The notes under the pieces: model-generated
Seen by the model: only the letters and a program-made list of their open reading frames with translations
Databases searched by the model: none
Told to the model about the DNA's origin: nothing
Part shown: in pieces, positions 33,906 to 47,177 of the stretch
Numbering within the stretch: position 1 is the stretch's first letter
Layout of the letters: each line of letters opens with the position of its first letter
Translations under genes and position numbers: made by a program
From: an uncultured Chloroflexia bacterium
Lineage (GTDB): Bacteria; Chloroflexota; Limnocylindria; Limnocylindrales; CSP1-4
NCBI GenBank assembly: GCA_963788375.1
Contig: CAWBGT010000027.1
Span: 1,168,047 to 1,232,046 of the forward strand
Reading direction: 5' to 3'
DNA: 64,000 bases

Positions 33906-33997
<92 letters not shown>

Positions 33998-34007
33998 GTC
34001 ACAGCGT

Positions 34008-34083
34008 GCGCCCGTAGCTCAGTGGATAGAGCACCAGCTTGCGGAGCTGGGGGTCGTGGGTTCGAATCCCGCCGGGCGCGCCA
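34008..34083 (+). tRNA. tRNA-Arg(GCG)
   Basis: GCGCCCG/CGGGCGC acceptor; A20 in D-loop; CCAGC-TT-GCG-GA-GCTGG; G73; CCA. Confidence 0.95.
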
Positions 34084-34106
34084 ACCACCCGACCGTGACA
34101 CGAAGA

Positions 34107-34130
34107 AGACCTCCGGGTCCCCGGAGGTCT
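34107..34130. terminator. Hairpin between the tRNA pair and the convergent gene
   Basis: AGACCTCCGG-gtcc-CCGGAGGTCT perfect 10-bp stem. Confidence 0.55.
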
Positions 34131-34167
34131 ACTTGATTCACTGGGGCGCCGGCGCGGCGCCCGGCCC

Positions 34168-34467: not shown

Positions 34468-34707
34468 TGAGACTCCCTTGTGCTCCGATCGGCCCTCGTG
34501 GTCGATGTGGCCATATGCTAGCCGGTAGGCAAGTATCGCGCCAGTGTCCGTCCGGGCCTCCGATTGGCCATGGCCGGGCGCTAGACTCCCCCGGACCGGC
34601 TGTCGGTGCCAGCCTGGGCCGATTTCGAACCCACGCCGCGACTGGCTGGATCGCAGGCCCGGACGCGGCTGCGGCGGCCCACCCCGTGTCCAATCGGTCG
34701 AGGGACG

Positions 34708-35151
34708 ATGACAGTCACCACGCAAGCAACGATCGCGGAGTCACTCGAGCGGATCATCTTTGCCGGTGTTGCCCTGACCACCGTCGCAATCGGGGCCGCG
34801 CGACCCGACTTCGATCTCACGTTCCCGCAGTGGCGGGTGCTGGTGGTGCTCGGCGAGTCCGAGGCAGGGATGCGCATCGGCGAGGTGGCCCGTCGGGTCG
34901 GGGTGACGCTGCCGGCGACGAGCCGCCAGGTTCATCGTCTCGAGCGGCGCGGACTGATCGAGGTGCGCCCGGACGAGCGGGACCGCAGGGCGTCACGCGC
35001 TCACCTGACCGTCGCAGGCCGGGAGGCTCAGGACGCGGTCGTCGCCTACCGGCGCGCGCGCGTCGCCGAGATCGCGCAGCCGCTGGAAGGCGACGAGGCG
35101 CTGCGGGACGGGATCGTGCGGATTGCCGCGGCCTTCAGCCGGGTCGGCTGA
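34708..35151 (+). CDS. MarR family transcriptional regulator
   Basis: LTFPQWRVL, HTH, RLERRGLI, DERDRR, LT.AG. Confidence 0.9.
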   Translation: MTVTTQATIAESLERIIFAGVALTTVAIGAARPDFDLTFPQWRVLVVLGESEAGMRIGEVARRVGVTLPATSRQVHRLERRGLIEVRPDERDRRASRAHLTVAGREAQDAVVAYRRARVAEIAQPLEGDEALRDGIVRIAAAFSRVG

Positions 35152-35196
35152 CCGGATCGGCGTCAGCCGGCGACGCCGGCGCTGGCCCTGGCCGCC

Positions 35197-36177
35197 TCAG
35201 CCGGCGGAGCCCCCGACGAGCGTGGCCAGCAGACGGTTCGACTCCGCGACGAGCGACGGGTGGGCCACCAGGCGGATCTCCACGTCCCGTGGCGCAGCAC
35301 CCACCGTCACGGCGAGCGAGTCCCCGCTGCCTCCAATCTTGCGCAGGCGGTTTCGCGCAACGACGAGCAGGTCGACGCCGTACTGCGCCATGCTGACGTC
35401 CGGCGTGGGGTCCGTCGCGACGACGAGCTCGGTGCCGGACAGCACAGCCACCCCGTCGTGCAGGTGCGGCGTCGGGTTGGCGACGTCGCCGGCCGCCACG
35501 ACCAGGCTGTCCATGCCGCGGGGCATGACCTCCCTCGAGCGGACCAGCGCCATCCACTTGTGCGGAAGGTCGGCCGGGTCGCAGCCGAGACCCTCGGGGA
35601 GGGGCTCGCCGGCCGGCGTCGCGTGCTGTCGCACGGGCAGCAGCATCCCGCGGAGCTCAGGCTGGCCCACCGTGTTGTAGCGCACGACGATGGTCGAATC
35701 GGGCCCGATGATCTCCAGGCGACCATAGAGCAGGATGCTCCTGTCGAGCATCGCCACGACGTCGTCGAACGGCATGGTCGCCCGGATGCGGGGCCCGTCC
35801 GCGTCCTTGATCCAGATCACGATGCGGTCGGCCCCGACCGCGACAACCTCCGTCGCCGTCACCACCCATTGGGCGCGTCCGGCGCCGATCGTCCGGGACG
35901 ACCGGGGGATGACGAACAGCCGCTCGGGACCCAGGTCGCCGACGACGTCCCGGAGGTCCGCCAGCGCCCCCTCGGGGACCTCGGCCAGGGTCGCGGGCCG
36001 GTGAGGCAGTCGCTCGAAGCGCCGCGTGGACAGTTCCCTGAGGATCTCCTCGTCCGCCGGCAGCTCCCAGGGTTCGGCGGGATCCTCCTGCTCGTGGGTT
36101 CGCGTCTGGATGATCCTGGGTCCGGCCGGGACCGGAGCCTCGAGGACGCTGCTGCCTGGTCGCCCGCTGGTCGTCAT
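35197..36177 (-). CDS. Hypothetical protein
   Basis: 326-aa ORF with GAGGAGG RBS and GC3-biased codons; no motif recognised. Confidence 0.7.
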   Translation of the reverse strand: MTTSGRPGSSVLEAPVPAGPRIIQTRTHEQEDPAEPWELPADEEILRELSTRRFERLPHRPATLAEVPEGALADLRDVVGDLGPERLFVIPRSSRTIGAGRAQWVVTATEVVAVGADRIVIWIKDADGPRIRATMPFDDVVAMLDRSILLYGRLEIIGPDSTIVVRYNTVGQPELRGMLLPVRQHATPAGEPLPEGLGCDPADLPHKWMALVRSREVMPRGMDSLVVAAGDVANPTPHLHDGVAVLSGTELVVATDPTPDVSMAQYGVDLLVVARNRLRKIGGSGDSLAVTVGAAPRDVEIRLVAHPSLVAESNRLLATLVGGSAG

Positions 36178-36383
36178 GTCCGCCTCCTCGCCGCCTTCGC
36201 GGCTGGGTCACATGCTAACCGTGGGCTCCTCGCCTGTCAGATGCCGCGGCCGTTGGAACCGATCGGCCGAGCCGTTCGGCGTTCCCGACCCTGGCGCGGC
36301 CGGCCAGGGACCGGTGCGCAGGCCATGCAGGTCGGCCGATGCGCCGATCCCCCCGGGGTCGCGCCGTCCCCCCGGGCGCGCCG

Positions 36384-37349
36384 TCAGGCGGAGCGGCCGA
36401 GGATGTCCAGCAGCATCGAGACGAACTTCGGCTCGTCCGCATCCAGCGCGAAGTGGACGTTCGGAGGCTCGAACGCGAAGTTGGCCTCGGCCGGATGCCG
36501 TCCGCTGAACCGGAAGTCGCACACTGTCCGCCCCGTCGAGAGCACGCCCGCCGTCTCGACGTCCACGTGCGCGAACCGGGTCGAGATCACCGACGGATCG
36601 ATGACCGCGCACACCGCGAGCGCGTCGTGGACGGGCGCCGCGCCCATCCGGTGCATCGGCTGGGTCGCGTCGTAGCCCTCGATGCGCTTGCTGATGAACC
36701 GGTACGCCGCCTCGCCGGCGGGCGTGCCGAGGGCCCGCAGCCGCGTCGCGTCCTCGAGCGACACGAGCGCACGGTGGGTCGCGTCGAGCGGCACCATCCG
36801 GATCGGGCGGCGGCAGTTGACGACGATCCGTGCCGCCTCCGGGTCCAGCCAGATGTTGAACTCGGCGGAGGCCGTCGCATTGCCGTGGTCGTGGGCCCCG
36901 CCCATGATCACGATCTCCGGGATCCGCTCGATGATCCGCGGCTCCTTCTGCATCGCCGTGGCGACATTCGTGAGCGGCCCCACGGGGATGAGCGTGATGT
37001 CGCCGTCGGAGGCGAGGTAGGTGTCGATGAGCCAGTCGACCGCGTGCTGCGGCTGCGCCGTGATCGTCGCCTCCGGGAGGTCGAGCTTGTCGCCGTGGAT
37101 CCGGGTCGCCGGGTTGTGCGCCGCCTGGGCGCGCGCAATCGGCCGCGACATGCCCCGGAACACGGGCACCTCTGGCATCCCGATCCACTCGAACACCCGG
37201 AGCGTGTTCTCCACGCACGAGTCGAGCACCGTGTTGCCGTTCACCACGGTTGCCCCGATGAGGTCGATGTCCGGGGAGAGCGCGGCGACCATGAGCGCGA
37301 CCGCGTCGTCGGTGCCGGTGTCGACGTCGAGGATGATCTTCGTAGCCAT
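36384..37349 (-). CDS. Nucleoside hydrolase (IU-NH family)
   Basis: DVDTGTDD, GPLTN, MGG, AEFNIWLDPEAA, VHDA. Confidence 0.93.
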   Translation of the reverse strand: MATKIILDVDTGTDDAVALMVAALSPDIDLIGATVVNGNTVLDSCVENTLRVFEWIGMPEVPVFRGMSRPIARAQAAHNPATRIHGDKLDLPEATITAQPQHAVDWLIDTYLASDGDITLIPVGPLTNVATAMQKEPRIIERIPEIVIMGGAHDHGNATASAEFNIWLDPEAARIVVNCRRPIRMVPLDATHRALVSLEDATRLRALGTPAGEAAYRFISKRIEGYDATQPMHRMGAAPVHDALAVCAVIDPSVISTRFAHVDVETAGVLSTGRTVCDFRFSGRHPAEANFAFEPPNVHFALDADEPKFVSMLLDILGRSA

Positions 37350-37381
37350 GTCGGCAGTGTGCCGCACCTGGCCGCCGCGTG

Positions 37382-38521
37382 TCAGGTCCCGGGCGGCCCG
37401 GCTGGCAGGAAGCGCTCCACGAACCGTTCGCTGGCGCCCCCGTCGCAGGAGGCCATGTGCCGGGCGATGAAGGCATCCCAGGCCGCGGCGTCAACCTCGC
37501 CCGCGAGCACCGCCTCCGCCACGCCGTCCGTGTCGCGGACCTGGGTCCCGATCATCTCGGTCCGGTAGTCAAGGTAGAGACCCGGATCCCGCTCGTACGC
37601 GTCGAGATCATCGACCAGGAGCACCAGCGGCCGACGCAGCAATGACCACTCGAAGATCGCCGAGGAGTAGTCCGTGACCAGCACGTCCGCAACCGCGAGC
37701 CAGTCGTTGAGGTCCTCGGCGGGGTCGCCCACGAGGTCGAAGCCGGCGGTGGGCTGCGTGGCCGGATCCAGGTTCGGGTGGGTCTTGGCGACGAGCGCCC
37801 ATGTCGCCGGGAGGAGCTCGCGGAGCCGGGCGCCGTCGAGCCCCAGGGCACCCGTGCGGTCGCGGCCTCGACCGCGGAAGGTCGGCGCGAAGAGCACGAT
37901 CCGCCGATCGCGGAGGACCGGATGTGCGGCCAGGATCCGGTCCCGGGAGCGGGCCACGGCGCCGGGATCGAAGAAGATGTCCGTGCGTGGAGCGCCGAGG
38001 GGGAGCACCCGCTCGACCGGCGTCCGGAGGGCTCGCGACCACGGGACGCGGCTCTGCTCGCCGGCCGCGATCACGTAGTCGTAGTAGCGGTGGAGGAAGG
38101 TCGCCTCCGGCTCCACGGGCGGCACGACCGTGTCCACGCCGAACCGCTTCAAGGCACCGGTCGCGTGCCACACCTGGACGACGGTCGCCCGCCGCCGGTG
38201 TGGTGCGACGTGGACCGGCAGGTAGGCGTTGTCGACGACGACCAGCCCCGCGGTCCGCACGTGGTAGAGCCCGCGGACCACGCGGACCAGGTAACGCGCC
38301 TTCGCCACCATCCCGTACCCGTAGGGCTCCAGCAGGAGGACCGGCCGGATGTCAGGGCGCAGCCGGCCGATGGCGTCGCGGATACCGCGCAGGTTGCCCT
38401 CCAGGACATCGAGCCTGGCCGTCGCGAGCACCACCCGGTCGGGATGCCCCGGCAGCAGGTCGAACAGGCGGCCCAGCACGCGCAGCAGGACACTCGCGAA
38501 CCGGTACTCCAGGCTGCTCAT
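37382..38521 (-). CDS. CDP-glycerol/ribitol phosphotransferase (TagB/TagF family)
   Basis: QVWHATGALKRFG, GAPRTD, FAPTFR, KTHP, LVTDYSS. Confidence 0.9.
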   Translation of the reverse strand: MSSLEYRFASVLLRVLGRLFDLLPGHPDRVVLATARLDVLEGNLRGIRDAIGRLRPDIRPVLLLEPYGYGMVAKARYLVRVVRGLYHVRTAGLVVVDNAYLPVHVAPHRRRATVVQVWHATGALKRFGVDTVVPPVEPEATFLHRYYDYVIAAGEQSRVPWSRALRTPVERVLPLGAPRTDIFFDPGAVARSRDRILAAHPVLRDRRIVLFAPTFRGRGRDRTGALGLDGARLRELLPATWALVAKTHPNLDPATQPTAGFDLVGDPAEDLNDWLAVADVLVTDYSSAIFEWSLLRRPLVLLVDDLDAYERDPGLYLDYRTEMIGTQVRDTDGVAEAVLAGEVDAAAWDAFIARHMASCDGGASERFVERFLPAGPPGT

Positions 38522-38558
38522 GGCGTGGGGGCCCGATCGAGGCCGTCCCGGCCCATGG

Positions 38559-39971
38559 TCAGGACGGGACGCCCGGGGCCGGCCGGACTCCGGTCGCGGG
38601 TCCCGCCAGGTCGAGGCGCTTGACGTCCACCACCTGCCCGGTGAGGTCGGACCGGAGCAGCCGCAGCGTCGCCGCCGCCACGTCGAGAGCGGTCAGCATC
38701 CCGTCCGCCGACTCGGCCGGGAATGCCCTGCGCCGCATCGGGGTGTCGGTCCGCTCGGGGCTCACGGCATTGACGCGGATGCCGTCGGGTGCCCACTCAT
38801 CGGCAAGGCCCTGGGTCATGTTGACGACACCGGCCTTGCTGGCGGAGTAGGGGACGTAGTCGGGCCGGCCCCGGGTGAACGAACTCGAGGCGAAGAGGGT
38901 GACCGAGCCGCGGCTGTCCCGCAGGTACGGGTGGGCGGCGCGTGCGACATTGAGGCTGCCGGTGAGGTTGACGTCGATCACCTCGGCAAATGAGGCGGGC
39001 TCGGTCTCCGCCAGTGGTCCGATGCGCAGGACGCCTGCCGTGCAGACGACATGGTCCAGTCCGCCGAGGCGCTCCGCGGCTGCCCTGACGCTGGCCTCGA
39101 CCGCGGCGTAGTCGCGCACGTCCAGGCCCATCGACGACCCGACCACCTCGGCGCGGCCCCCCTGCTCTGCCGCGAGGTCCGCGATCGCGCGCCCGATGCC
39201 GTTGGTCCCCCCGACGACGAGGATCCGGGCACCGGCCAGCGTGCTGGTTGGCGTCGGGTCGGGGCCCGGCACGAGGATCGACATCTGGAGCATACGGTCC
39301 GCCATGACCATGTCGATCCGGGTGGTGACCTTCATGTTGATCTCGTCGCCGGCCACCGCGACCATCCTGGCGTCGGGCACATAGCGCAGCACGAGGCTGC
39401 AGTCGTCGGTGGCGCCCAGGTCCCCGGCCTGCCCGGCGGCGGCGTAGGCGCGCTTCAGCACGCCGACCAGGAACGTCTGCGGCGTCTGGCCCCTGCGGTA
39501 GCGCCCGCGATCCGGGATCTCCACCACGTCCTCGCCGTCGACGATCACCAGCGTGTCGGCGCTCGGGATCACGGTGTCCGTCGCGTCGGCCCGGCCCGAG
39601 ATGATGGGCTCGATCGCGCGCTGGATCACCTCGAGAGGGAGCAGCGGTCGCACGGCGTCATGGACCAGGACCACGTCGTCGTCCGCCCCGCCCAGGGCGT
39701 CGAGGCCGTTGCGCGTGCTCTCGTTGCGAGTCGCGCCACCCGCGACCACCACCACGTCCATTGTCAGGCCGGCGTCCCCGATGAGACGGCGGGTCTCCTC
39801 GATCCAGGCCGGGTGGGAGACCACGACCAGCCGTTCGATCCGCGCCCCGGCCAGCCGGCGCAGGGTGCGCAGCAGGATCGGGTCACCCGCGAGCCGGACG
39901 AACTGCTTGGGCAGCTCGCCGCCGAACCGGTTGCCGTCGCCACCGGCGAGGACGATGGCGTGGATCTGCAT
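38559..39971 (-). CDS. Cytidylyltransferase (IspD/TarI-like)-SDR reductase fusion, Bcs1-like CDP-ribitol synthase
   Basis: LAGGDGNRFG..PKQF, HDAVRP, QTPQ, TDD, then SDR GGTNGIG and YSASK. Confidence 0.88.
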   Translation of the reverse strand: MQIHAIVLAGGDGNRFGGELPKQFVRLAGDPILLRTLRRLAGARIERLVVVSHPAWIEETRRLIGDAGLTMDVVVVAGGATRNESTRNGLDALGGADDDVVLVHDAVRPLLPLEVIQRAIEPIISGRADATDTVIPSADTLVIVDGEDVVEIPDRGRYRRGQTPQTFLVGVLKRAYAAAGQAGDLGATDDCSLVLRYVPDARMVAVAGDEINMKVTTRIDMVMADRMLQMSILVPGPDPTPTSTLAGARILVVGGTNGIGRAIADLAAEQGGRAEVVGSSMGLDVRDYAAVEASVRAAAERLGGLDHVVCTAGVLRIGPLAETEPASFAEVIDVNLTGSLNVARAAHPYLRDSRGSVTLFASSSFTRGRPDYVPYSASKAGVVNMTQGLADEWAPDGIRVNAVSPERTDTPMRRRAFPAESADGMLTALDVAAATLRLLRSDLTGQVVDVKRLDLAGPATGVRPAPGVPS

Positions 39972-40083
39972 AGGACGAAGCGGCCTCCGGCGAGCTGGGC
40001 GTCGTGTCCCGGACAGGGTAGCCTCCACGCCCGGATCGCGGCGTCCTAGGTACCATGCGCCAGATGTTGTCGCACCGCTGCCC

Positions 40084-41328
40084 GTGAGCCGCCGCCGCGT
40101 CGCGCGCACGTCCCTGACCCGGCTGGGCTTCACGTTTGGACGCCTTGGTCCCGTGCGCCCGAGGGTGGTCCTGGCCACGTCGCACACGCCGGCGTTGACC
40201 GGCAACCTGCGCTTCATCCACGAGGAGCTCGTGGGAAACGTGGCCACCGATCGGGATCTGTCGGTGGTGACGCTGACGCTGCGGCGGGGCGGCCGGGTGC
40301 CGCGGCTCTCGCGCATCTGGAGCACCTTCCTTGCCGGCTACTACCTGGCCTCGTCGCGGGTGACGGTGGTGGACGACTACTTCTTCCCGATGTACGTCAT
40401 CAAGCCCCGCAGGGGGACGACCCGCGTGCAGGTCTGGCATGCGGCGGGGGCGTTCAAGAAGTTCGGGTTCTCCGTGCTGGACAAGGCCTTCGGGGTCGAT
40501 GACGACTTCGTGGCCAAGGTCAGGATCCACTCCAACTACAGCGTGGCGCTCGTCTCGTCGATGTCCATCGCGCCGCATTACGCCGAGGCCTTCGGCCAAC
40601 CCCTGGACATCTTCACCTCGCGGATCGGGGTGCCGCGCACCGACCTGTTCAGCGATCCGGAGCGGAGGACACGTGCCGAGGCCCGGGTCCGGGCAACGTA
40701 CCCGCTGCCGGCCGGCCGCCGCGTGATCCTGTACGCCCCAACGTTCCGGGGCGAGACGGTGGGCAAGGCACGCTACGCGGACCTCATGGACCTCGAGGTC
40801 ATGCACCGGATGCTGGGCGCGGATCACGTCCTCCTGCTCAAGCTGCACCCGTTCGTCCGCGACGCCGTGACCATCCCACCCGAGCTCGCGCAGTTCGCGA
40901 TCGACGCCTCGGCCGACCCCGACGTCAACGAGCTGATGCTCGTGAGCGACGTCCTGGTGACGGACTACTCCAGCGTGATCTACGAGTTCGCGCTGCTGGG
41001 ACGCCCGATCGCGTTCCTCGCCCCCGACGATGGCGCCTATGTCGAGGAACGCGGCTTCTACTTCGACTTCCGTGCCGAGGCACCGGGTCCCATCGTCGAC
41101 ACCACGGAGGACCTGGCGGCCGTGATCCGCGCGAACGCGTTCGACCTCGAGCGGGTGAGGGCGTTCGCCGCAGCGTCCTTTGATGTCACCGAGGGTGGCG
41201 CGACAAGGCGGCTCGTCGACGATGTCATCCTCCCGGCCCTCGCGGGCGTCGAGGTGACCGCCGCATCGCTCGGGGCCAGGCCCGCTTCGGCGCCGCGGTC
41301 GGACGCCACGCAACCCGGAGCCGGCTAG
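40084..41328 (+). CDS. CDP-glycerol/ribitol phosphotransferase (TagB/TagF family)
   Basis: QVWHAAGAFKKFG, GVPRTD, YAPTFRG, KLHP, LVTDYSS; start uncertain. Confidence 0.9.
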   Translation: MSRRRVARTSLTRLGFTFGRLGPVRPRVVLATSHTPALTGNLRFIHEELVGNVATDRDLSVVTLTLRRGGRVPRLSRIWSTFLAGYYLASSRVTVVDDYFFPMYVIKPRRGTTRVQVWHAAGAFKKFGFSVLDKAFGVDDDFVAKVRIHSNYSVALVSSMSIAPHYAEAFGQPLDIFTSRIGVPRTDLFSDPERRTRAEARVRATYPLPAGRRVILYAPTFRGETVGKARYADLMDLEVMHRMLGADHVLLLKLHPFVRDAVTIPPELAQFAIDASADPDVNELMLVSDVLVTDYSSVIYEFALLGRPIAFLAPDDGAYVEERGFYFDFRAEAPGPIVDTTEDLAAVIRANAFDLERVRAFAAASFDVTEGGATRRLVDDVILPALAGVEVTAASLGARPASAPRSDATQPGAG

Positions 41329-42011
41329 GCCTCCGGCGCGTCTGCTTCGCCTGCCGCGGGCACCCTGCGCAGCCGCCAGCCCGCCCAGGCGCAGAACGCT
41401 GCCCCCACGGCGATCCATGCGGTGAGCAGCCCGCCCAGCACGATCCCGCCCAGCACCAGTCCGACGATCTCGCCGATCCGGTCGAACCCATTGACGCGCA
41501 CCGCCAGCTCGTTGACCTGGGTCGTCATCTGCCGGATCTGCTCGGCCATCGCGGTTGCGTCATCGGCGTTCTGGTCGAGGCTGATGGCAAGGGCCTCGGC
41601 ATCTCCCTCGAAGGTCTTGAGCGTCCCGGCGAGGTCCGCCAGCTTGGAGGACGCTCCGGCGAACGGCTGCCTGCCGAGGATGTCGATGTTGAGCGCGCCG
41701 GCCAGGGCGAGCGAGGTGTCCGTGGCGACATTGATGGCGTCCCTGGCATCCGCAAGGGTCTGGCTGGACGTCCTGAGCGTCGTGCCGCCGTTCTCGGTCG
41801 TGATCGCAAGCGACTCCATGGTCGCGGCGAGACGGGTCAGGGAGGCGGCGATCTTCGCCTGGTCGGCCATCAGCCGGTCGTCAAGGTTGCGCGCCGCCAC
41901 CGCGCCGCCGATGAGCGCCGCGGCGACGATGCCGGCCATCAGCACCCCGGCCAGCCCGAACGCCAGCATCCCGGTGCCCAGCCGCCGTCGATCCAGACCC
42001 AGCGTGTCCAC
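41325..42011 (-). CDS. Hypothetical membrane protein (two TM helices flanking a helical domain)
   Basis: N- and C-terminal hydrophobic helices; TACCAT 6 nt before GTG. Confidence 0.7.
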   Translation of the reverse strand: MDTLGLDRRRLGTGMLAFGLAGVLMAGIVAAALIGGAVAARNLDDRLMADQAKIAASLTRLAATMESLAITTENGGTTLRTSSQTLADARDAINVATDTSLALAGALNIDILGRQPFAGASSKLADLAGTLKTFEGDAEALAISLDQNADDATAMAEQIRQMTTQVNELAVRVNGFDRIGEIVGLVLGGIVLGGLLTAWIAVGAAFCAWAGWRLRRVPAAGEADAPEA

Positions 42012-42078
42012 GTCCGGATGGTACGCGCATGGTCGCCCGCGCGACGGGTACCCTCAGCATCCTGAAGAGGAGGTTCTC

Positions 42079-42960
42079 GTGGAGCGCATCGCGTTTGTTG
42101 GGCTGGGCACCATGGGCGCGGCGATGGCCGCCAACCTGCGCCGTGCCGGCTTCGAGCTCACCGTCTGGAACAGGACGCCAGGTCGGGCCACCGCGCTGCT
42201 GGAGCTCGGGGCCAGTGAGGCCTCGACGCCCGCTGCGGCCGCTGCAGCCGCCGACGTGGTGGTGTGCTGCGTCTCGGACACGCCCGACGTCGAGTCCGTC
42301 CTGTTCGGCGCCGATGGCGTCGCGACGGGCCTCGCCTCGGGCGGCCTCGTGATCGACTGCTCGACGATCTCGCCATCGGCCACGGTGGGCTTCGCCGGCC
42401 GGCTCGCAGACGCCGGCATCGCCTTCGTGGACGCGCCGGTCTCGGGCGGGTCGGAGGGCGCCAAGCTGGGGACCCTCACCATCTTCGTGGGTGGCGAGGA
42501 TCAAGCGGTCAAACGGGCTCACCCGGTCCTGGCCGCCATGGGCAAGACGATCACCCACTTCGGGCCTGCGGGTTCGGGCCAGGCCGTGAAGGCCGTCAAC
42601 CAGGTCGTGATCGCGGGCGTCTACCTCGGGGTCGCCGAGGGCATGGTGCTCGCGATGAAGGCCGGCCTGGACCCGGCGACGGTTGCGACGGCGCTGGGCG
42701 GCGGCGTGGCCAAGAGCTGGATCCTGGAGAACCGCAGCGCCAAGATGATCGCCAACGACTATCCGCTTGGGTTCCGCACGTCGCTCCACCTCAAGGACCT
42801 GGCGATCGCGCTCGACCTGGCCCGGTCCCTGGGGGTCGCCCTGCCCGTGTCCGCGCTGGCGGCCCAGCTGGAGGCCGGCCTCGTCGCCCGCGGCCACGGC
42901 GACGAGGACATGTCGAACCTCGCCCGGTCGATCCGCTCGCTGTCGGGTCTCGAGGGGTAG
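42079..42960 (+). CDS. NAD(P)-dependent beta-hydroxyacid dehydrogenase (3-hydroxyisobutyrate/tartronate semialdehyde reductase family)
   Basis: GLGTMG, DAPVSGG, GQAVKAVNQ, KDL; GAGGAGG RBS. Confidence 0.92.
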   Translation: MERIAFVGLGTMGAAMAANLRRAGFELTVWNRTPGRATALLELGASEASTPAAAAAAADVVVCCVSDTPDVESVLFGADGVATGLASGGLVIDCSTISPSATVGFAGRLADAGIAFVDAPVSGGSEGAKLGTLTIFVGGEDQAVKRAHPVLAAMGKTITHFGPAGSGQAVKAVNQVVIAGVYLGVAEGMVLAMKAGLDPATVATALGGGVAKSWILENRSAKMIANDYPLGFRTSLHLKDLAIALDLARSLGVALPVSALAAQLEAGLVARGHGDEDMSNLARSIRSLSGLEG

Positions 42961-43018
42961 CGCGACGGGCAGCCCGTGAAGCCTGCGCGTGACGAGAGGT
43001 CCGCGGAGGACCCCGGGG

Positions 43019-44209
43019 TCAGCTCTCGACCGGTCCCAGCGACGGGGTCAGGAGCAGGGGGTCGCCCAGGCGGTCCGCGTACTTCGGGCGGAACCGGGCC
43101 GTGTCGTACGCGGCCAGCTGGACCCGGCGCGGCGGCTTGGCCGTCTCGGCGAGGGACACGTGCGAGTACTTGCCATCGCGGATGGCGACCATGCGCCCGC
43201 CGATGCCGTCGCGGATGAGGTCCATGGCGGCATTCGCGAACGTCGTCGCGACCATCGAGTCGAGCATGTCGGGCTCGCCGGAGCGCAGGTCGTAGGTCAG
43301 GTCCGACGCGACCGCCTCGATGCCGGTCAGGGCCTTGAGCTCCGACGCCAGCACCTCGCCCACGTTCATCTTGTGGCGGTGTCCGAACGCGTCCGCCTCG
43401 CCGACATCACCGAGCTCGACACCGTTCCAGATCGCACCCTCGGCGGTGATCACGATCGCGTAGCGGCTGGGGTTGTTGCGGTGGTCCTCCTTGACGATCT
43501 CGGCCAGGGCCTTCACGTCATAGGGGAACTCGGGGATCACGCAGCGCGTGGACGTCACGTAGGCCGTGTACAGGGCGGTGAAGCCGGCGTCGCGACCGAA
43601 AATGCGGAACACGCCAATCCGCTCGTGGGATCCGAGCGTCGTGCGCTGGCGGTTGAGGACCTCCTTGGCCCGCGTGATCGCCGACGAGAACCCGATGCAG
43701 TACTCGGTCCCGTTGACGTCGTTGTCCATGGTCTTCGGGATGGCGACCAGCGGCAGGCCCCGCTCGTAGAGGACCGACGAGAAGGACAGGGTGTCGTCCC
43801 CACCGATGGTCACGAGGTTGGTGAGGCCGAGGTGGGCGATCGTGTCCAGGACGTGGTCGGTGAGGTCGTAGACGCCGTCCGAGGTCTGCTTGTTCGCGAT
43901 GGACTTCGGGTCGAGCCATGCCGGCAGGGCGGCGGTGCGCATCTTGCGCGGGTTGGTGCGCGAGGAGTGCAGGATGGTGCCGCCGGTCCGGTCGATCGTC
44001 CTCGTGTTGTTGCGGTCGAGCACCCGCACGTACTGCGGATCCAGCTCGGCCGACCGGCGCTGGTGGGTCAGGCCCTCCCAGCCGCGCCGGATGCCCACGA
44101 CCTCGTAGCCGAGGTCGGTCGCCCGGTAGACGACGCTCTTGATGACCGAGTTGAGGCCGGGGACGTCGCCGCCGCCGGTGAGGATGCCGATTCTCCGAGG
44201 TGCAGCCAT
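43019..44209 (-). CDS. pfkA: 6-phosphofructokinase, PPi-type signature
   Basis: TGGGDVPGLN, GGTIL, GGDDT, PKTMDND, GRDAG. Confidence 0.92.
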   Translation of the reverse strand: MAAPRRIGILTGGGDVPGLNSVIKSVVYRATDLGYEVVGIRRGWEGLTHQRRSAELDPQYVRVLDRNNTRTIDRTGGTILHSSRTNPRKMRTAALPAWLDPKSIANKQTSDGVYDLTDHVLDTIAHLGLTNLVTIGGDDTLSFSSVLYERGLPLVAIPKTMDNDVNGTEYCIGFSSAITRAKEVLNRQRTTLGSHERIGVFRIFGRDAGFTALYTAYVTSTRCVIPEFPYDVKALAEIVKEDHRNNPSRYAIVITAEGAIWNGVELGDVGEADAFGHRHKMNVGEVLASELKALTGIEAVASDLTYDLRSGEPDMLDSMVATTFANAAMDLIRDGIGGRMVAIRDGKYSHVSLAETAKPPRRVQLAAYDTARFRPKYADRLGDPLLLTPSLGPVES

Positions 44210-44371
44210 TGGGGACTCCGCTGGGTCCCGGACGTGATGCTTCCGGGGTGATGGTCGAAGGCGCCGGCGGCGCGCGGTGTGCGCGCTGGAATCCGGGCAC
44301 GTGGTACGCCGGAGACGCGGCGCGGTACACCCGCAATCCTAACCCGGAGGCCGGTCGCTATGATCGCCACC

Positions 44372-44824
44372 ATGAACTACGAGCTGTTCATGGGCGAGGC
44401 ACTGGCCGAGGCACGCCAGGCCGCCGCGCGCGGGGCGCCGCCCGTTGGCGCCGTCGCCGTCATGAACGACGCGATGGTGGCGCGGGGCTCGAACCGGGTC
44501 GCCGAGAGCGCCGACCCCACTGCCCATGCGGTCCTCGCGGCCCTGCGTGAGGCGGCCCGCAAGCTGGGCACTCCGACCCTCGCCGACGTGACGATCTTCA
44601 CCACCATCGAGCCCTGCCCGATGTGCGTGGGCGCGATGCTCGAGTCCGAGGCCGCGGCACTCGTGTACGCGGCACCCAACCCCGTCTGCGGTGCCGCGGG
44701 CACCGTCATCGGGCTGGCCGACGACGACCGGCTCGGCCGGCGTCTCGACGTCGTGTCCGGGATCCGCCGAGCCGAGGCGGAGGAGCTCATGGGCGAGCTG
44801 GACGGGGCGGCATCCGGGGCCTGA
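44372..44824 (+). CDS. tadA: TadA-like deaminase-fold protein lacking the catalytic Glu
   Basis: PVGA, DPTAHAV (normally HAE), EPCPMC; tadA-SRP-dnaX-ybaB-recR synteny. Confidence 0.8.
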   Translation: MNYELFMGEALAEARQAAARGAPPVGAVAVMNDAMVARGSNRVAESADPTAHAVLAALREAARKLGTPTLADVTIFTTIEPCPMCVGAMLESEAAALVYAAPNPVCGAAGTVIGLADDDRLGRRLDVVSGIRRAEAEELMGELDGAASGA

Positions 44825-44890: not shown

Positions 44891-44976
44891 GGAGAGGTGT
44901 CCGAGTGGTTGATGGTGCCGCTCTCGAAAAGCGGTCTGCGCAAGCAGCGTGGGTTCGAATCCCACCCTCTCCGCCA
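44891..44976 (+). tRNA. tRNA-Ser(CGA)
   Basis: CCGCT-CT-CGA-AA-AGCGG; long variable arm; CCA. Confidence 0.97.
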
Positions 44977-45033: not shown

Positions 45034-45121
45034 GGAGAGGTCGCCTAGTGGCCTAGGGCGCCGCACTGGAAATGCGGTATGGGGCAACCCATCGCGGGTT
45101 CAAATCCCGCCCTCTCCGCCA
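45034..45121 (+). tRNA. tRNA-Ser(GGA)
   Basis: CCGCA-CT-GGA-AA-TGCGG; long variable arm; CCA. Confidence 0.97.
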
Positions 45122-45203
45122 GTCCACCCGGCCCGCCGGGCAGCGTCCGCCCGGGGACGTGCCGCGAGGCGGCCCTCCGCCCGGCCCCTGCTATCATCGC
45201 CCG

Positions 45204-45470
45204 GCCGTGCTAGGCGGGGAACTAGCGGTGCCCTGTACCTGCAATCCGCTCCAGCAGGGCTGAATTCCCTCCCGAGGTCGGCGTTCTCGAGAGCCGACGG
45301 CGTTCGCGACGTTGAGGACCGGGTCCCGCGCAGCGGCGACTCGCGAACCGTGTCAGGTCCGGAAGGAAGCAGCACTCAGCGAAGCTCGCCGGGTGCCGCG
45401 GAACGGCCTGGTCCGAGCCGCGTTCACCGGTGGGCGCGGGAGCGTCCGGATCGACGGAGGGTGCACGGCA
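45204..45470 (+). ncRNA. ffs: Large bacterial SRP RNA (with Alu domain)
   Basis: Helix 8 TCAGGTCCGGAAGGAAGCAGC; 5' GCCGTGC pairs with 3' GCACGGC; Alu-like GCGGTGCCCTGTACCTGCAATCCGC; TATCAT -10 upstream. Confidence 0.93.
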
Positions 45471-45511
45471 CTTTGCACATCGTCGCGCCACGCCCCCCAA
45501 CAGGAGCGCCG

Positions 45512-46777
45512 TTGACCACAGGGACGCCCCACCAGGCCCTCTACCGCCGCTGGCGCGCGCAGACGTTCTCAGAGATCGTCGGCCAGGAGGCGGTGGTCGC
45601 CACGCTCCGCAACGCGGTGGCGACCGACCAGGTCGCGCACGCGATCCTGTTCACGGGACCGCGCGGTACCGGCAAGACCTCACTCGCCCGCATCCTCGCG
45701 AAGGCGATCAACTGCGAGAACCTGCAGGCGGGTGCGGACCCCTGCGACACCTGTCCGTCGTGCGCGGCGATCCGCGAAGGCCGCGCCCTTGACCTGGTCG
45801 AGATCGACGCCGCCTCCAACCGCGGGATCGACGCGATCCGCGAGCTCCGGGAGCGCCTCAACTACGCGCCCACGGACCTCAGGCGCAAGGTCTACATCCT
45901 CGACGAGGCGCACCAGATCACGAAGGACGCCTGGAACGCGCTCCTCAAGTCGCTCGAGGAACCGCCCGACTTCGTGACGTTCATGTTCGCCTCCACCCAC
46001 CCCCAGGGCTTTCCGCCGGCGATCCTCTCGCGGCTCCAGCGGTTCGATGTCCGGCGGCTCACCGTCCCGGAGATCACCGGGAAGCTGGACAGGATTCTGG
46101 CTGCCGACGACCGCGAGGCGGACCCGGAGGCGGTCCGCATCATCGCGGGGCTGGCAGCGGGCGGCATGCGCGACGCCGAGTCGATCCTGGACCAGCTGCT
46201 GTCGTCCACCGGCGGCCGGATCGAGGCGGAGGCCGTCCGCGACCTCCTCGGCCTCGCGGACGCCGAGATGGTGGGCGGTTTTGTCGACGCCCTCACCACC
46301 GGCAACGCGGCCGCTGGGTTCGCCCTGCTCGACCGGCTGGAGGAACGGGGCCGGGACCTGCGGGTCCTCCTCGACCAGGTCGTGGACGCTCTGAGGGGCC
46401 GGCTCATCGCAGGCCTGGCCGCGGGTGACCCCGCCAACCACGCCGACGCCGCGGCTGCGAGGCGGCTCTCCTCCATCGATCCCACCCGCCTGGGCCCGGG
46501 CGGGCTCCGCCTGCAGCTGGAGCTGGCGCTGCTGGAGCCCCCGATCCCGTCACCCGTCTTGCTCGCGGTGGCGGAGGGCCCGTCCCGCCGGACGGTCGCC
46601 GCGCCCGCCTCCTCGTCGGCGCCAACGGCCACCCGGGACGAGGAGCCTGAGCGATCCGCCTGCAGGGAAACCGCCTTCCGCGCGCGAGCCGGCACGCGCG
46701 GACGCGTCGACACGCGGGCCCGACGCAGCGACGCCCGTGGCGCCACCGGAGTCGGCCACGCCCGAGCCCACGCCTGA
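45512..46777 (+). CDS. dnaX: DNA polymerase III gamma/tau, N-terminal clamp-loader part (frame ends in the linker)
   Basis: LYRRWR, GPRGTGKT, Cys cluster, EIDAASN, ILDEAH, LKSLEEPP, GGMRDA; AGGAG RBS before TTG. Confidence 0.93.
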   Translation: MTTGTPHQALYRRWRAQTFSEIVGQEAVVATLRNAVATDQVAHAILFTGPRGTGKTSLARILAKAINCENLQAGADPCDTCPSCAAIREGRALDLVEIDAASNRGIDAIRELRERLNYAPTDLRRKVYILDEAHQITKDAWNALLKSLEEPPDFVTFMFASTHPQGFPPAILSRLQRFDVRRLTVPEITGKLDRILAADDREADPEAVRIIAGLAAGGMRDAESILDQLLSSTGGRIEAEAVRDLLGLADAEMVGGFVDALTTGNAAAGFALLDRLEERGRDLRVLLDQVVDALRGRLIAGLAAGDPANHADAAAARRLSSIDPTRLGPGGLRLQLELALLEPPIPSPVLLAVAEGPSRRTVAAPASSSAPTATRDEEPERSACRETAFRARAGTRGRVDTRARRSDARGATGVGHARAHA

Positions 46778-47177
46778 CACGGCCGCCCTGGCGCCGTCAT
46801 CCGCTTCGGACATGGAGCCCGACGGCGACCTCGACCGGCTTCGCCACGGCTGGGCCGAGGTCCTGGCGGCCGTCAGCGCCCGCCCGTCGCTCAAGGCGAT
46901 CATCAAGGAGTGCCGCCCCGTCGCCGTAGACGGAAATGTCATCACCCTCGGGTTCCCCGAAGAGAAATCGTTCATGCGGGACGTCGCCGACGGCAAGAGG
47001 GCGCAGTTCGAGCCCTACTTCGAGCGGTTCCTGGGCCACCCTGTCGGGATCCGGTGCGTGGTGAGCAACCTGGAGTTGCTGCCGCCCCTGCCCGCGGACC
47101 AGGAGGCCGCCCACATCTTGTCCGAGGCGCATCGGATCTTCGCGGACGATCGCCTCGACGTGCCCGACATCACCTGA
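46650..47177 (+). CDS. DnaX tau-like linker and C-terminal domain, in the +1 frame relative to dnaX
   Basis: Pro/Ala linker then WAEVL...RPVAVDGNVITLGF, resembling tau C-terminal regions; start unresolved (possible ATG at 46812). Confidence 0.7.
   Translation, partial: SDPPAGKPPSAREPARADASTRGPDAATPVAPPESATPEPTPDTAALAPSSASDMEPDGDLDRLRHGWAEVLAAVSARPSLKAIIKECRPVAVDGNVITLGFPEEKSFMRDVADGKRAQFEPYFERFLGHPVGIRCVVSNLELLPPLPADQEAAHILSEAHRIFADDRLDVPDIT

Follow-up and report, generated by a model that had tools for sequence, protein, structure and literature searches.

The 64,000-nucleotide stretch of DNA analyzed here in full (the window), from an uncultured member of the Limnocylindrales in the phylum Chloroflexota, carries a tRNA-Arg gene with the anticodon GCG and, downstream of it, an ortholog of the tRNA adenosine deaminase TadA (here tadA*) in which the HAE motif of the active site reads HAV. 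We propose that the tRNA would be a working decoder of CGU and CGC in an organism without wobble inosine and that tadA*, lodged in its ancestral genomic slot, would have lost both the proton-shuttling Glu (HAE to HAV) and the residues that contact tRNA. We place the probability of this explanation as a whole, i.e., an inosine-free decoder together with a TadA inactivated in place, at roughly 0.8. The tRNA by itself is ordinary for Chloroflexota, and tRNAs of this kind are on record from other bacteria; the object of greater interest is its neighbor, a conserved and apparently dead TadA of Limnocylindria that is found in two families and sits in the ancestral slot.

The tRNA-Arg(GCG) gene and its conservation

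Of the seven tRNA genes that ARAGORN calls in the window, one is the tRNA-Arg with the anticodon gcg (Table 1). Its match to the Rfam tRNA model (RF00005) reaches 70.7 bits, well over the gathering threshold of 29, and covers model positions 1-71 in full, and its minimum-energy fold is the cloverleaf. The anticodon loop runs T34039, T34040, G34041, C34042, G34043, G34044 and A34045, which is exactly the TT-GCG-GA loop, with GCG at 34041-34043, that an earlier sequence-only reading of this DNA had described. Recognition by ArgRS calls for a purine discriminator and for an A at position 20 of the D-loop. The identity elements listed in that reading (A20, C35 and G73) are all found: A20 lies at 34026, after the GG of the D-loop; C35 at 34042, within an NCG anticodon that has both C35 and G36; and the discriminator G73 at 34080, followed by an encoded CCA at 34081-34083. 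The segment is thus confirmed as a canonical tRNA-Arg with the anticodon GCG.

The same 76 bases recur at 100% identity in six other genomes of the genus, and hence the GCG anticodon is not a slip of the assembly. More broadly, ARAGORN calls tRNA-Arg(GCG) in 28 of 29 related loci, comprising 15 genomes of the genus and 13 of a sister family, with the 29th being a UCG tRNA; in all 28 the gene is downstream of tRNA-Ser(GCT), directly so in most of them. Relative to the ACG tRNAs of the class, the GCG tRNAs have changed from C to U at position 32 and from A to G at position 37.

Table 1. Features of the window discussed in the text, with coordinates counted from its first nucleotide.
Feature	Position	Strand	Basis or remark
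tRNA-Ser(GCT), first of the tRNA pair	33906..33997	+	ARAGORN; Rfam tRNA 55.3 bits
tRNA-Arg(GCG)	34008..34083	+	ARAGORN; Rfam tRNA model; MFE fold
Interval of ~10 kb between tRNA pair and tadA*	34606..44209	.	Pfam scan
tadA*, TadA ortholog with HAV for HAE	44279..44824	+	Profile searches, alignment, AF2 model
Val codon at the catalytic Glu position (DPTAHAV)	44531..44533	+	Alignment to solved TadA structures
tRNA-Ser(CGA), next gene after tadA*	44891..44976	+	ARAGORN
tRNA-Ser(GGA), last tRNA of the ancestral cluster, then dnaX	45034..45121	+	ARAGORN
dnaX domains	45122-46777		After the tRNA-Ser genes

The arginine decoding set and codon use

Most bacteria read CGU, CGC and CGA by means of a TadA-edited tRNA-Arg(ICG). 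In the assembly to which the window belongs (33 contigs, 93% complete, 4.3 Mb, G+C 70.8%), a genome-wide scan yields 59 tRNAs, those for Arg being GCG, UCG, CCG, CCU and two copies of UCU. Neither a tRNA-Arg(ACG) nor an A34 tRNA of any kind is among the 59 tRNAs of this 93%-complete assembly. The sequence-only reading had anticipated GCG and UCG with no ACG from such a scan, and this is what was found, along with CCG; the tRNA-Arg(UCG) that it expected to exist elsewhere, on the ground that CGA codons are used, is located on contig C16.

Codon use, estimated on 2368 ORFs picked by third-position G+C (GC3), is dominated by CGC (41.9% of Arg codons) and CGG (34.4%), followed by AGG (8.1%), CGU (7.5%), CGA (7.0%) and AGA (1.1%). 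As CGC is the top Arg codon, the main Arg codon is the Watson-Crick partner of G34. CGA is in use and has its own U34 tRNA, and CGG has a C34 tRNA. The CGN set would therefore be inosine-free, with G34 and U34 tRNA-Arg present and an A34 tRNA-Arg absent from the 93%-complete assembly; the missing part is unlikely to hide an ACG tRNA or a TadA, and an order-wide scan argues against it. G34 pairs with C in Watson-Crick fashion and with U by wobble. The role of tRNA-Arg(GCG) would very probably be that of the CGU/CGC decoder, with CGA predicted to be read by tRNA-Arg(UCG) and CGG by tRNA-Arg(CCG). Since there is no A34 tRNA, a tRNA adenosine deaminase would be dispensable to such a cell.

A TadA ortholog with valine in place of the catalytic glutamate

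Whether the genome is searched with PF14437, with PF00383 or with the NCBIfam model for TadA, the same two places come up. The first is tadA*, whose longest ORF starts from 44279 and whose likely start is an M at 44360 (154 aa) or 44372 (150 aa). In a full-length alignment with the B. subtilis, E. coli-derived and Salmonella TadAs, it displays DPTAHAV against their HAE and has the zinc-site His and the PCxxC cysteines; a DNA probe for DPTAH[A/P]V matches 44513-44532 of the window and so locates the Val codon. On the NCBIfam TadA equivalog (NF008113) the protein scores 102 bits, below a cut-off of 150 that is strict enough to be reached by only 6 of 14 control genomes. The AlphaFold (AF2) model of tadA*, with a pLDDT of 86.6, is predicted to superimpose on the S. 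aureus TadA (2b3j) with a TM-score of 0.89 and an rmsd of 1.8 Å. The homologues of tadA* are single-domain proteins of 150-154 aa, without an extra N-terminal tRNA-binding domain, many of which the annotation pipeline has automatically named 'tRNA(adenine34) deaminase'. In a search of sequencing runs, the best-matching ones share at most 0.14 of the words; in four metatranscriptome contig sets, at 80% likeness, both tRNA-Ser genes are covered and tadA* is represented by fragments of 36-81 bases with many mismatches.

The second place with a CDA fold, on contig C1, reads HAE but is fragmentary, with its frame interrupted by shifts. In a relative, the intact ortholog matches the B. subtilis guanine deaminase (PDB 1wkq) at 1.2e-45, as against about 1e-16 for TadAs, which points to a frameshifted GuaD-type guanine deaminase and not a TadA. 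An ADAT2-like HAE partner for tadA* was also considered and rejected: the paralog is of the GuaD type, patchy among relatives and frameshifted here. With the PF14437, PF00383 and NCBIfam TadA searches, no HAE TadA was recovered from the 93%-complete assembly. The sequence-only reading had named a tRNA-Arg(ACG) together with an active TadA elsewhere as the observation that would speak against it, and neither was found in the assembly at this completeness.

The valine is a property of an entire clade. All 19 tadA* orthologs retrieved from the genus (the window's own included; 68-100% identity) read HAV, and when the query is taken with its closest 120 homologues, Val occupies the catalytic position in 121 of 121 sequences, namely 112 HAV with an intact PCxxC, 8 HPV and one HAV with a broken PCxxC. 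In a collection of species-representative genomes, the 38 loci most like the query have H[A/P]V throughout, and the other 42, from other phyla, have H[A/S]E throughout; the records of the former are titled Chloroflexota, Limnocylindria or Limnocylindrales, with one labelled Steroidobacteraceae and one Anaerolineaceae. The best 150 representatives of a 1.8-billion-protein library comprise 31 HAV and 111 HAE sequences, two that do not cover the site, and six others (HGE, HPI, HAP and three misaligned fragments).

A residue-level comparison of 59 HAV with 45 HAE sequences reveals what was kept and what was given up. Each of the 59 HAV sequences used has an open frame and retains the His, both Cys and the Glu of the EPC motif; the catalytic Glu is replaced by Val (E56V) in 59 of 59, with neither Glu nor Asp at that position. 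Several residues that are invariant in the HAE sequences, viz., N43, R71, R95, the N124-H125 pair and the FFxxxR motif of the C-terminal helix (F145-F146 and R150), are replaced or less strictly kept in the HAV set, with R95 turned to Asp in 50 of the 59. Other residues have become fixed specifically in the clade, e.g., Phe for Tyr at about position 76-78 (59/59). The median net charge is -6 in the HAV sequences versus -1 in the HAE sequences, and that of the C-terminal tail is -2 versus +2. By a crude Nei-Gojobori estimate on these GC-rich genes, the median dN/dS is 0.19 within the genus (171/171 pairs), 0.33 across the whole HAV clade (dS being usable in 1704 of 1711 pairs) and 0.25 for the HAE sequences (285 of 990 pairs). 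On this estimate for the genus, tadA* is under purifying selection, and because the frames are open, key residues are kept and dN/dS is low, it is a conserved protein and not a pseudogene. The sequence-only reading had taken the TadA 10 kb downstream for an apparently dead one; the Val in place of the catalytic Glu bears this out, but the picture of a decaying relic fails, since the protein is under purifying selection.

In a quick maximum-likelihood tree (IQ-TREE, midpoint-rooted and provisional), the HAV sequences form one group with an SH-aLRT of 100 on a long stem, and the HAE sequences from within the class group with Myxococcota and Bacillota, not beside the HAV clade. Most simply, these sequences would be explained by one E-to-V event, after which change came in a burst. 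As for the biochemical consequence, the Glu of the CDA fold is reported to shuttle the proton during deamination (PMC8216470); the HAV protein should therefore not deaminate, and we infer that the cell would be without I34. Analogy with Glu mutants and with ADAT3 makes it highly likely that tadA* is devoid of deaminase activity. That it has been retained for a new, selected and non-catalytic role has, in our estimate, a somewhat better than even chance of being correct.

Genomic context and the ancestral slot

The tRNA-Ser(GCT) and tRNA-Arg(GCG) genes are separated by ten bases. The interval between this pair and tadA* contains genes for a MarR regulator, a nucleoside hydrolase, two TagF-like glycerophosphotransferases of the teichoic-acid type, an IspD-SDR fusion, a 3-hydroxyisobutyrate-dehydrogenase-like protein and PFK; in a relative (locus L103), the same tRNA pair is just 0.9 kb from tadA*. 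On the other side, tRNA-Ser(CGA) comes after tadA* in 37 of 38 Limnocylindria loci, and it also comes after the true tadA in other phyla. Two Myxococcota loci (L112 and L117) present tRNA-Ser(TGA), tRNA-Ser(GCT), tRNA-Arg(ACG), tadA (HAE), tRNA-Ser(CGA) and tRNA-Ser(GGA) in a row, and the Limnocylindrales locus L103 has this very gene order, but with tRNA-Arg(GCG) and an HAV gene in the respective places. The order shared by L103 with L112 and L117 thus indicates that the tRNA and tadA* descend in place from an ACG/tadA pair: they are the positional orthologs of the corresponding members of a tRNA-Ser(GCT)-tRNA-Arg(ACG)-tadA-tRNA-Ser(CGA)-tRNA-Ser(GGA)-dnaX cluster.

Distribution in the order, class and phylum

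The tallies for the class and phylum use a 22-base D-arm/anticodon-loop pattern as a proxy in place of a tRNA caller; when five ACG/GCG pattern hits were rechecked with ARAGORN, two were not called as tRNAs. In the order of the window (families f1 and f2), a D-arm/anticodon-loop pattern that allows A, G or T as residue 34 is present in 108 of 121 genomes, and the loops are all GCG or UCG among the matches listed. An ACG-only pattern turned up in the order in 1 of 251 genomes and in none of 141 high-quality ones, and this single hit resembles the UCG tRNA of its family with a T34A change.

Within the class, the state of the tRNA was set beside the results of a DNA probe for DPTAH[A/P]V, which gave 0 control hits. 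Family f1 has tRNA-Arg(GCG) and is positive with the HAV probe in 52 of 60 genomes; f4 has GCG in 14/14 and ACG in 0/14 genomes (GCG also in 5/5 in a separate tally), with the HAV probe positive in 62 of 66. Families f3 and f5 have ACG loops in at least 25 genomes; the HAV probe is positive in 1 of 66 (f3) and 0 of 1 (f5), and HAE was found in 3 of 3 genomes examined, namely G153 and G157 (f3) and G151 (f5). The ACG-type hit of G151 is a truncated tRNA by ARAGORN. G157 was considered as an intermediate with both states and rejected, as its GCG-type hit is no tRNA by ARAGORN. In f2, genomes of 1.1 Mb have kept the GCG tRNA; the HAV probe is negative (0/7), a protein query detected no TadA-like gene in 16 genomes, the sole kind of hit with PF00383 was a Cdd-type deaminase, in 4 of 5 genomes, and other genes occupy the slot upstream of tRNA-Ser(CGA).

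Across the phylum, 251 Chloroflexota genomes were sampled. A GCG-type loop is present in 152 of them, which represent 85 of 145 genera, and 17 have an ACG-type loop; both patterns occur in two genomes (G511 and G529) and neither in 84. TadA was checked in 49 Chloroflexota genomes chosen by tRNA pattern (30 GCG, 7 ACG and 12 with neither), and the TadA model exceeded its cut-off in 6 of 7 ACG, 0 of 30 GCG and 1 of 12 neither-pattern genomes. The true Chloroflexota TadAs score 150-194 on this model and adjoin tRNA-Ser(CGA) in 6 of the 7 TadA-positive genomes, and the best hits in the GCG genomes are GuaD-like or RibD, all of them HAE. Some of these tallies draw on unpublished genomes: G187, G200, G203, G206, G213, G217 and G248 in the ACG listing of f3/f5, G433, G529 and G554 in the loop tallies of the phylum, and G224 and G248 in that of the HAV probe; dropping them shifts each count by at most their number, and no claim depends on those alone.

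Thus, the state of the anticodon and the state of TadA co-vary across Chloroflexota, as emerged when the two were mapped against each other as the sequence-only reading had suggested, with TadA in 6/7 ACG versus 0/30 GCG genomes. In this phylum, ACG with TadA is the exception to an inosine-free rule. That G34 is a minority state, as had been stated at the outset, holds among bacteria overall but not in Chloroflexota, where it is the majority (152/251); tRNA-Arg(GCG) is therefore less remarkable than first rated.

Alternative explanations

The order of events could be the reverse of the one favored here, with GCG and no TadA being ancestral in Chloroflexota, and ACG with tadA being regained in a few lineages by transfer of the neighboring genes, one of these lineages having later inactivated the gene again to give HAV. 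The predominance of GCG (152 versus 17 of 251 Chloroflexota genomes), the fact that neighboring genes for a tRNA and tadA could move jointly, and the placement of the in-class HAE sequences with Myxococcota and Bacillota, apart from the HAV clade, in the quick tree would all accord with such a history. However, the long HAV stem may distort that tree, and the true tadA is beside tRNA-Ser(CGA) in 6 of 7 TadA-positive Chloroflexota, as in other phyla, an arrangement that fits vertical descent with many losses; we consider the reversed order unlikely. It is hardly credible that the GCG anticodon is artefactual or belongs to a silent additional copy, with the true decoder being an unassembled ACG tRNA: bins frequently lack tRNAs and this is a draft assembly, but identical or near-identical GCG tRNAs are found in 28 of 29 related loci, and the one ACG pattern among 251 genomes of the order resembles a UCG-type tRNA with T34A.

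Two further alternatives concern tadA* alone. It might be a relic on the way to being lost after the switch to G34, surviving upstream of two tRNA-Ser genes, perhaps as their promoter. Such a fate is suggested by the reduced-genome sister family f2, which has lost tadA* (0/16 by protein query, 0/7 by HAV probe), by the relaxation of the tRNA-contact residues in the HAV sequences, and by the constancy with which the gene abuts tRNA-Ser(CGA) (37/38 Limnocylindria loci). A promoter function, though, would place no constraint on amino acids, and the frame is open in 59/59 sequences, with a genus median dN/dS of 0.19, zinc ligands kept in all 59 and new clade-specific residues fixed; moreover, 52/60 f1 and 62/66 f4 genomes have the gene, making this a distinctly improbable account. 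Slightly more doubtful still is the notion that tadA* remains an enzyme acting on another base or RNA site, or with another zinc chemistry, wherein the proton shuttle would come from another residue or from the substrate. In its favor, the zinc site is preserved along with the predicted TadA fold, the protein is conserved as judged by dN/dS, and E. coli TadA is reported to edit mRNA too (PMC13170351). Against this, Val is never replaced by Glu or Asp in 59 sequences, the residues for RNA contact have gone, as has the basic C-terminal helix, and both ADAT3, with the same Val, and a Glu-to-Ala mutant of ADAT2 are reported to be inactive (PMC8216470). We accordingly retain as the preferred reading a TadA inactivated in place next to an inosine-free decoder.

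Relationship to known systems

The replacement of ACG by GCG accompanied by UCG, with TadA absent, is reported in Mollicutes, for which a stepwise model has been put forward in which the deaminase weakens before it is lost (Yokobori et al., 2013; PMC3711424). According to the same account, the Pneumoniae group of Mollicutes and M. pulmonis, which are tiny AT-rich parasites, have lost tadA and tRNA-Arg(CCG) outright (PMC3711424). In contrast, the genome studied here is of 4.3 Mb with 71% G+C, and has kept CCG as well as a conserved, apparently dead tadA. Further cases are Thermotogae and Spirochaetes, all sequenced members of which are said to have GCG in place of ACG (PMC8007984), and the Candidate Phyla Radiation, said to use GCG, UCG and CCG (PMC8629427); as described, these lineages decode CGN throughout with GCG, UCG and CCG, as would be the case here. 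The loss of the inosine modification is likewise reported for Spirochaetes and one proteobacterial class (PMC6063277). Our literature search returned no statement on tRNA-Arg(GCG) in Chloroflexota or Limnocylindria and, covering main texts, no description of a conserved catalytically dead bacterial TadA. Two studies may bear on the claim for the phylum: Rafels-Ybern et al. 2018 may treat Chloroflexota, and Rafels-Ybern et al. 2019, reportedly cited for 'deeply branching bacteria', may already cover them.

Set against the bacterial TadAs of E. coli, S. aureus and B. subtilis (PDB 1z3a, 2b3j and 7cph), tadA* is predicted to have the same fold (TM 0.88-0.89) and has the same zinc ligands and the same slot beside tRNA-Arg and tRNA-Ser genes. 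Unlike them, it is without the catalytic Glu, the FFxxxR motif and several further invariant residues, scores below the NCBIfam cut-off, and is found in a genome from which the substrate tRNA-Arg(ACG) is absent (0/59 tRNAs). The eukaryotic ADAT3/Tad3 offers the closer likeness, being, as reported, a TadA derivative that underwent the same Glu-to-Val change, kept its zinc ligands, lost its tRNA determinants and altered its C-terminal helix (PMC8216470). ADAT3 differs in having an extra N-terminal domain and in acting on A34 tRNAs as a heterodimer with active ADAT2, per the same source (PMC8216470), whereas tadA* is of about 150 aa, and neither an active TadA paralog nor an A34 tRNA was found in its genome. 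On balance, we lean slightly toward viewing the Limnocylindria protein as a stand-alone pseudo-TadA that would have acquired its Glu-to-Val change independently of ADAT3 and taken up a new non-catalytic job, e.g., RNA or protein binding, as an intermediate between an enzyme and a lost gene.

Implications

These observations place Chloroflexota among the bacterial groups in which CGN decoding would do without inosine. At a practical level, they raise an annotation issue, as homologues without the catalytic residue carry the name of 'tRNA(adenine34) deaminase'. More generally, they bear on attempts to model the loss of tRNA modification enzymes. A conserved and seemingly dead TadA would provide a natural case in which to ask what task a deaminase scaffold performs once its substrate is gone, and tadA* may be regarded as a counterpart, in bacteria, of the way ADAT3 arose. 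If the reading as a stand-alone pseudo-TadA is true, tadA* would be a living intermediate in the passage from an essential enzyme to a lost gene, a loss that most lineages of the phylum would have completed.

Sequence features flanking the tRNA-Arg and tadA* genes

About 20 bases after the tRNA-Arg(GCG) gene of the window lies a G+C-rich inverted repeat, AGACCTCCGGG...CCCGGAGGTCT, which is absent from the list returned by the terminator scan because no T-run follows it. Farther along the same strand, dnaX is presented as two reading frames that overlap by approximately 350 bases, a split that could stem from an assembly error or from a frameshift, which may or may not be programmed.

Coordinates of the features considered here (G, genome, with G000 holding the window; C, contig; L, locus; f4 and f5, other families of the class Limnocylindria)
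Feature	Genome	Position	Strand	Remarks
Inverted repeat	G000	window 34100-34135		
dnaX frame 1	G000	window 45122-46777	+	ATPase and domain III
dnaX frame 2	G000	window 46425-47177	+	tau C-terminal domain
tRNA-Ile(UAU)	G000	C16:397263-397339		outside window; ARAGORN
tRNA-Ile(UAU)	G000	C25:35168-35245		outside window; ARAGORN
GuaD-type guanine deaminase (L002)	G000	C1:503269-503499	minus	outside window
Partial tRNA-Arg(UCG) copies (L192)	G164 (f4)	C2:292500-298300		
Partial tRNA-Arg(UCG) copies	G152 (f4)	C4:346220-358231		
tRNA-Arg(ACG) (L157)	G355	C276:522-597	minus	
tRNA-Arg(ACG) 5' portion (L188)	G151 (f5)	C140:14440-14560		ACG-type pattern match

TadA-like motif variants and a broken guanine deaminase gene

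Among the best 150 representatives retrieved with the tadA* protein from the library of 1.8 billion proteins, three other TadA-like representatives deviate from the H-A-E motif: P0192 (HPI, 41% identity to the query) and P0199 (HAP, 52% identity), both devoid of the catalytic glutamate, and P0134, whose motif reads HGE. Two of the loci with HAV, L106 and L085, come from records whose titles name Steroidobacteraceae (Pseudomonadota) and Anaerolineaceae; both fall within the Limnocylindria HAV clade and retain the synteny with tRNA-Ser, and these titles are probably bin labels mismatched to the contig. In G000 the GuaD-type guanine deaminase gene is disrupted, its reading frame changing at each of its two ends, and its counterpart in the relative G006 is unbroken.

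Variant tRNA genes in G000 and its relatives

Isoleucine tRNAs with the UAU anticodon are uncommon in bacteria. Across the whole assembly of G000, ARAGORN calls two of them, along with tRNA-Ile(GAU) and three CAU tRNAs.

Four to five copies of the 5' part of tRNA-Arg(UCG), spaced about 0.9 to 5.7 kb apart, occur in f4, and along the G164 segment ARAGORN recognizes a single complete tRNA; the partial copies may be remnants of repeated integrations. The ACG-type match in the f5 genome has no recognizable T-arm and elicits no tRNA call from ARAGORN, and that genome nonetheless carries a TadA with the HAE motif of the active enzyme. The tRNA-Arg(ACG) of L157, found in one genome of the order Limnocylindrales, agrees in its D-arm and anticodon stem with the UCG tRNA of its family, apart from a single T34A change. 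If real rather than the product of a sequencing error, this tRNA would bear an unmodified A34, the TadA of that lineage being dead.
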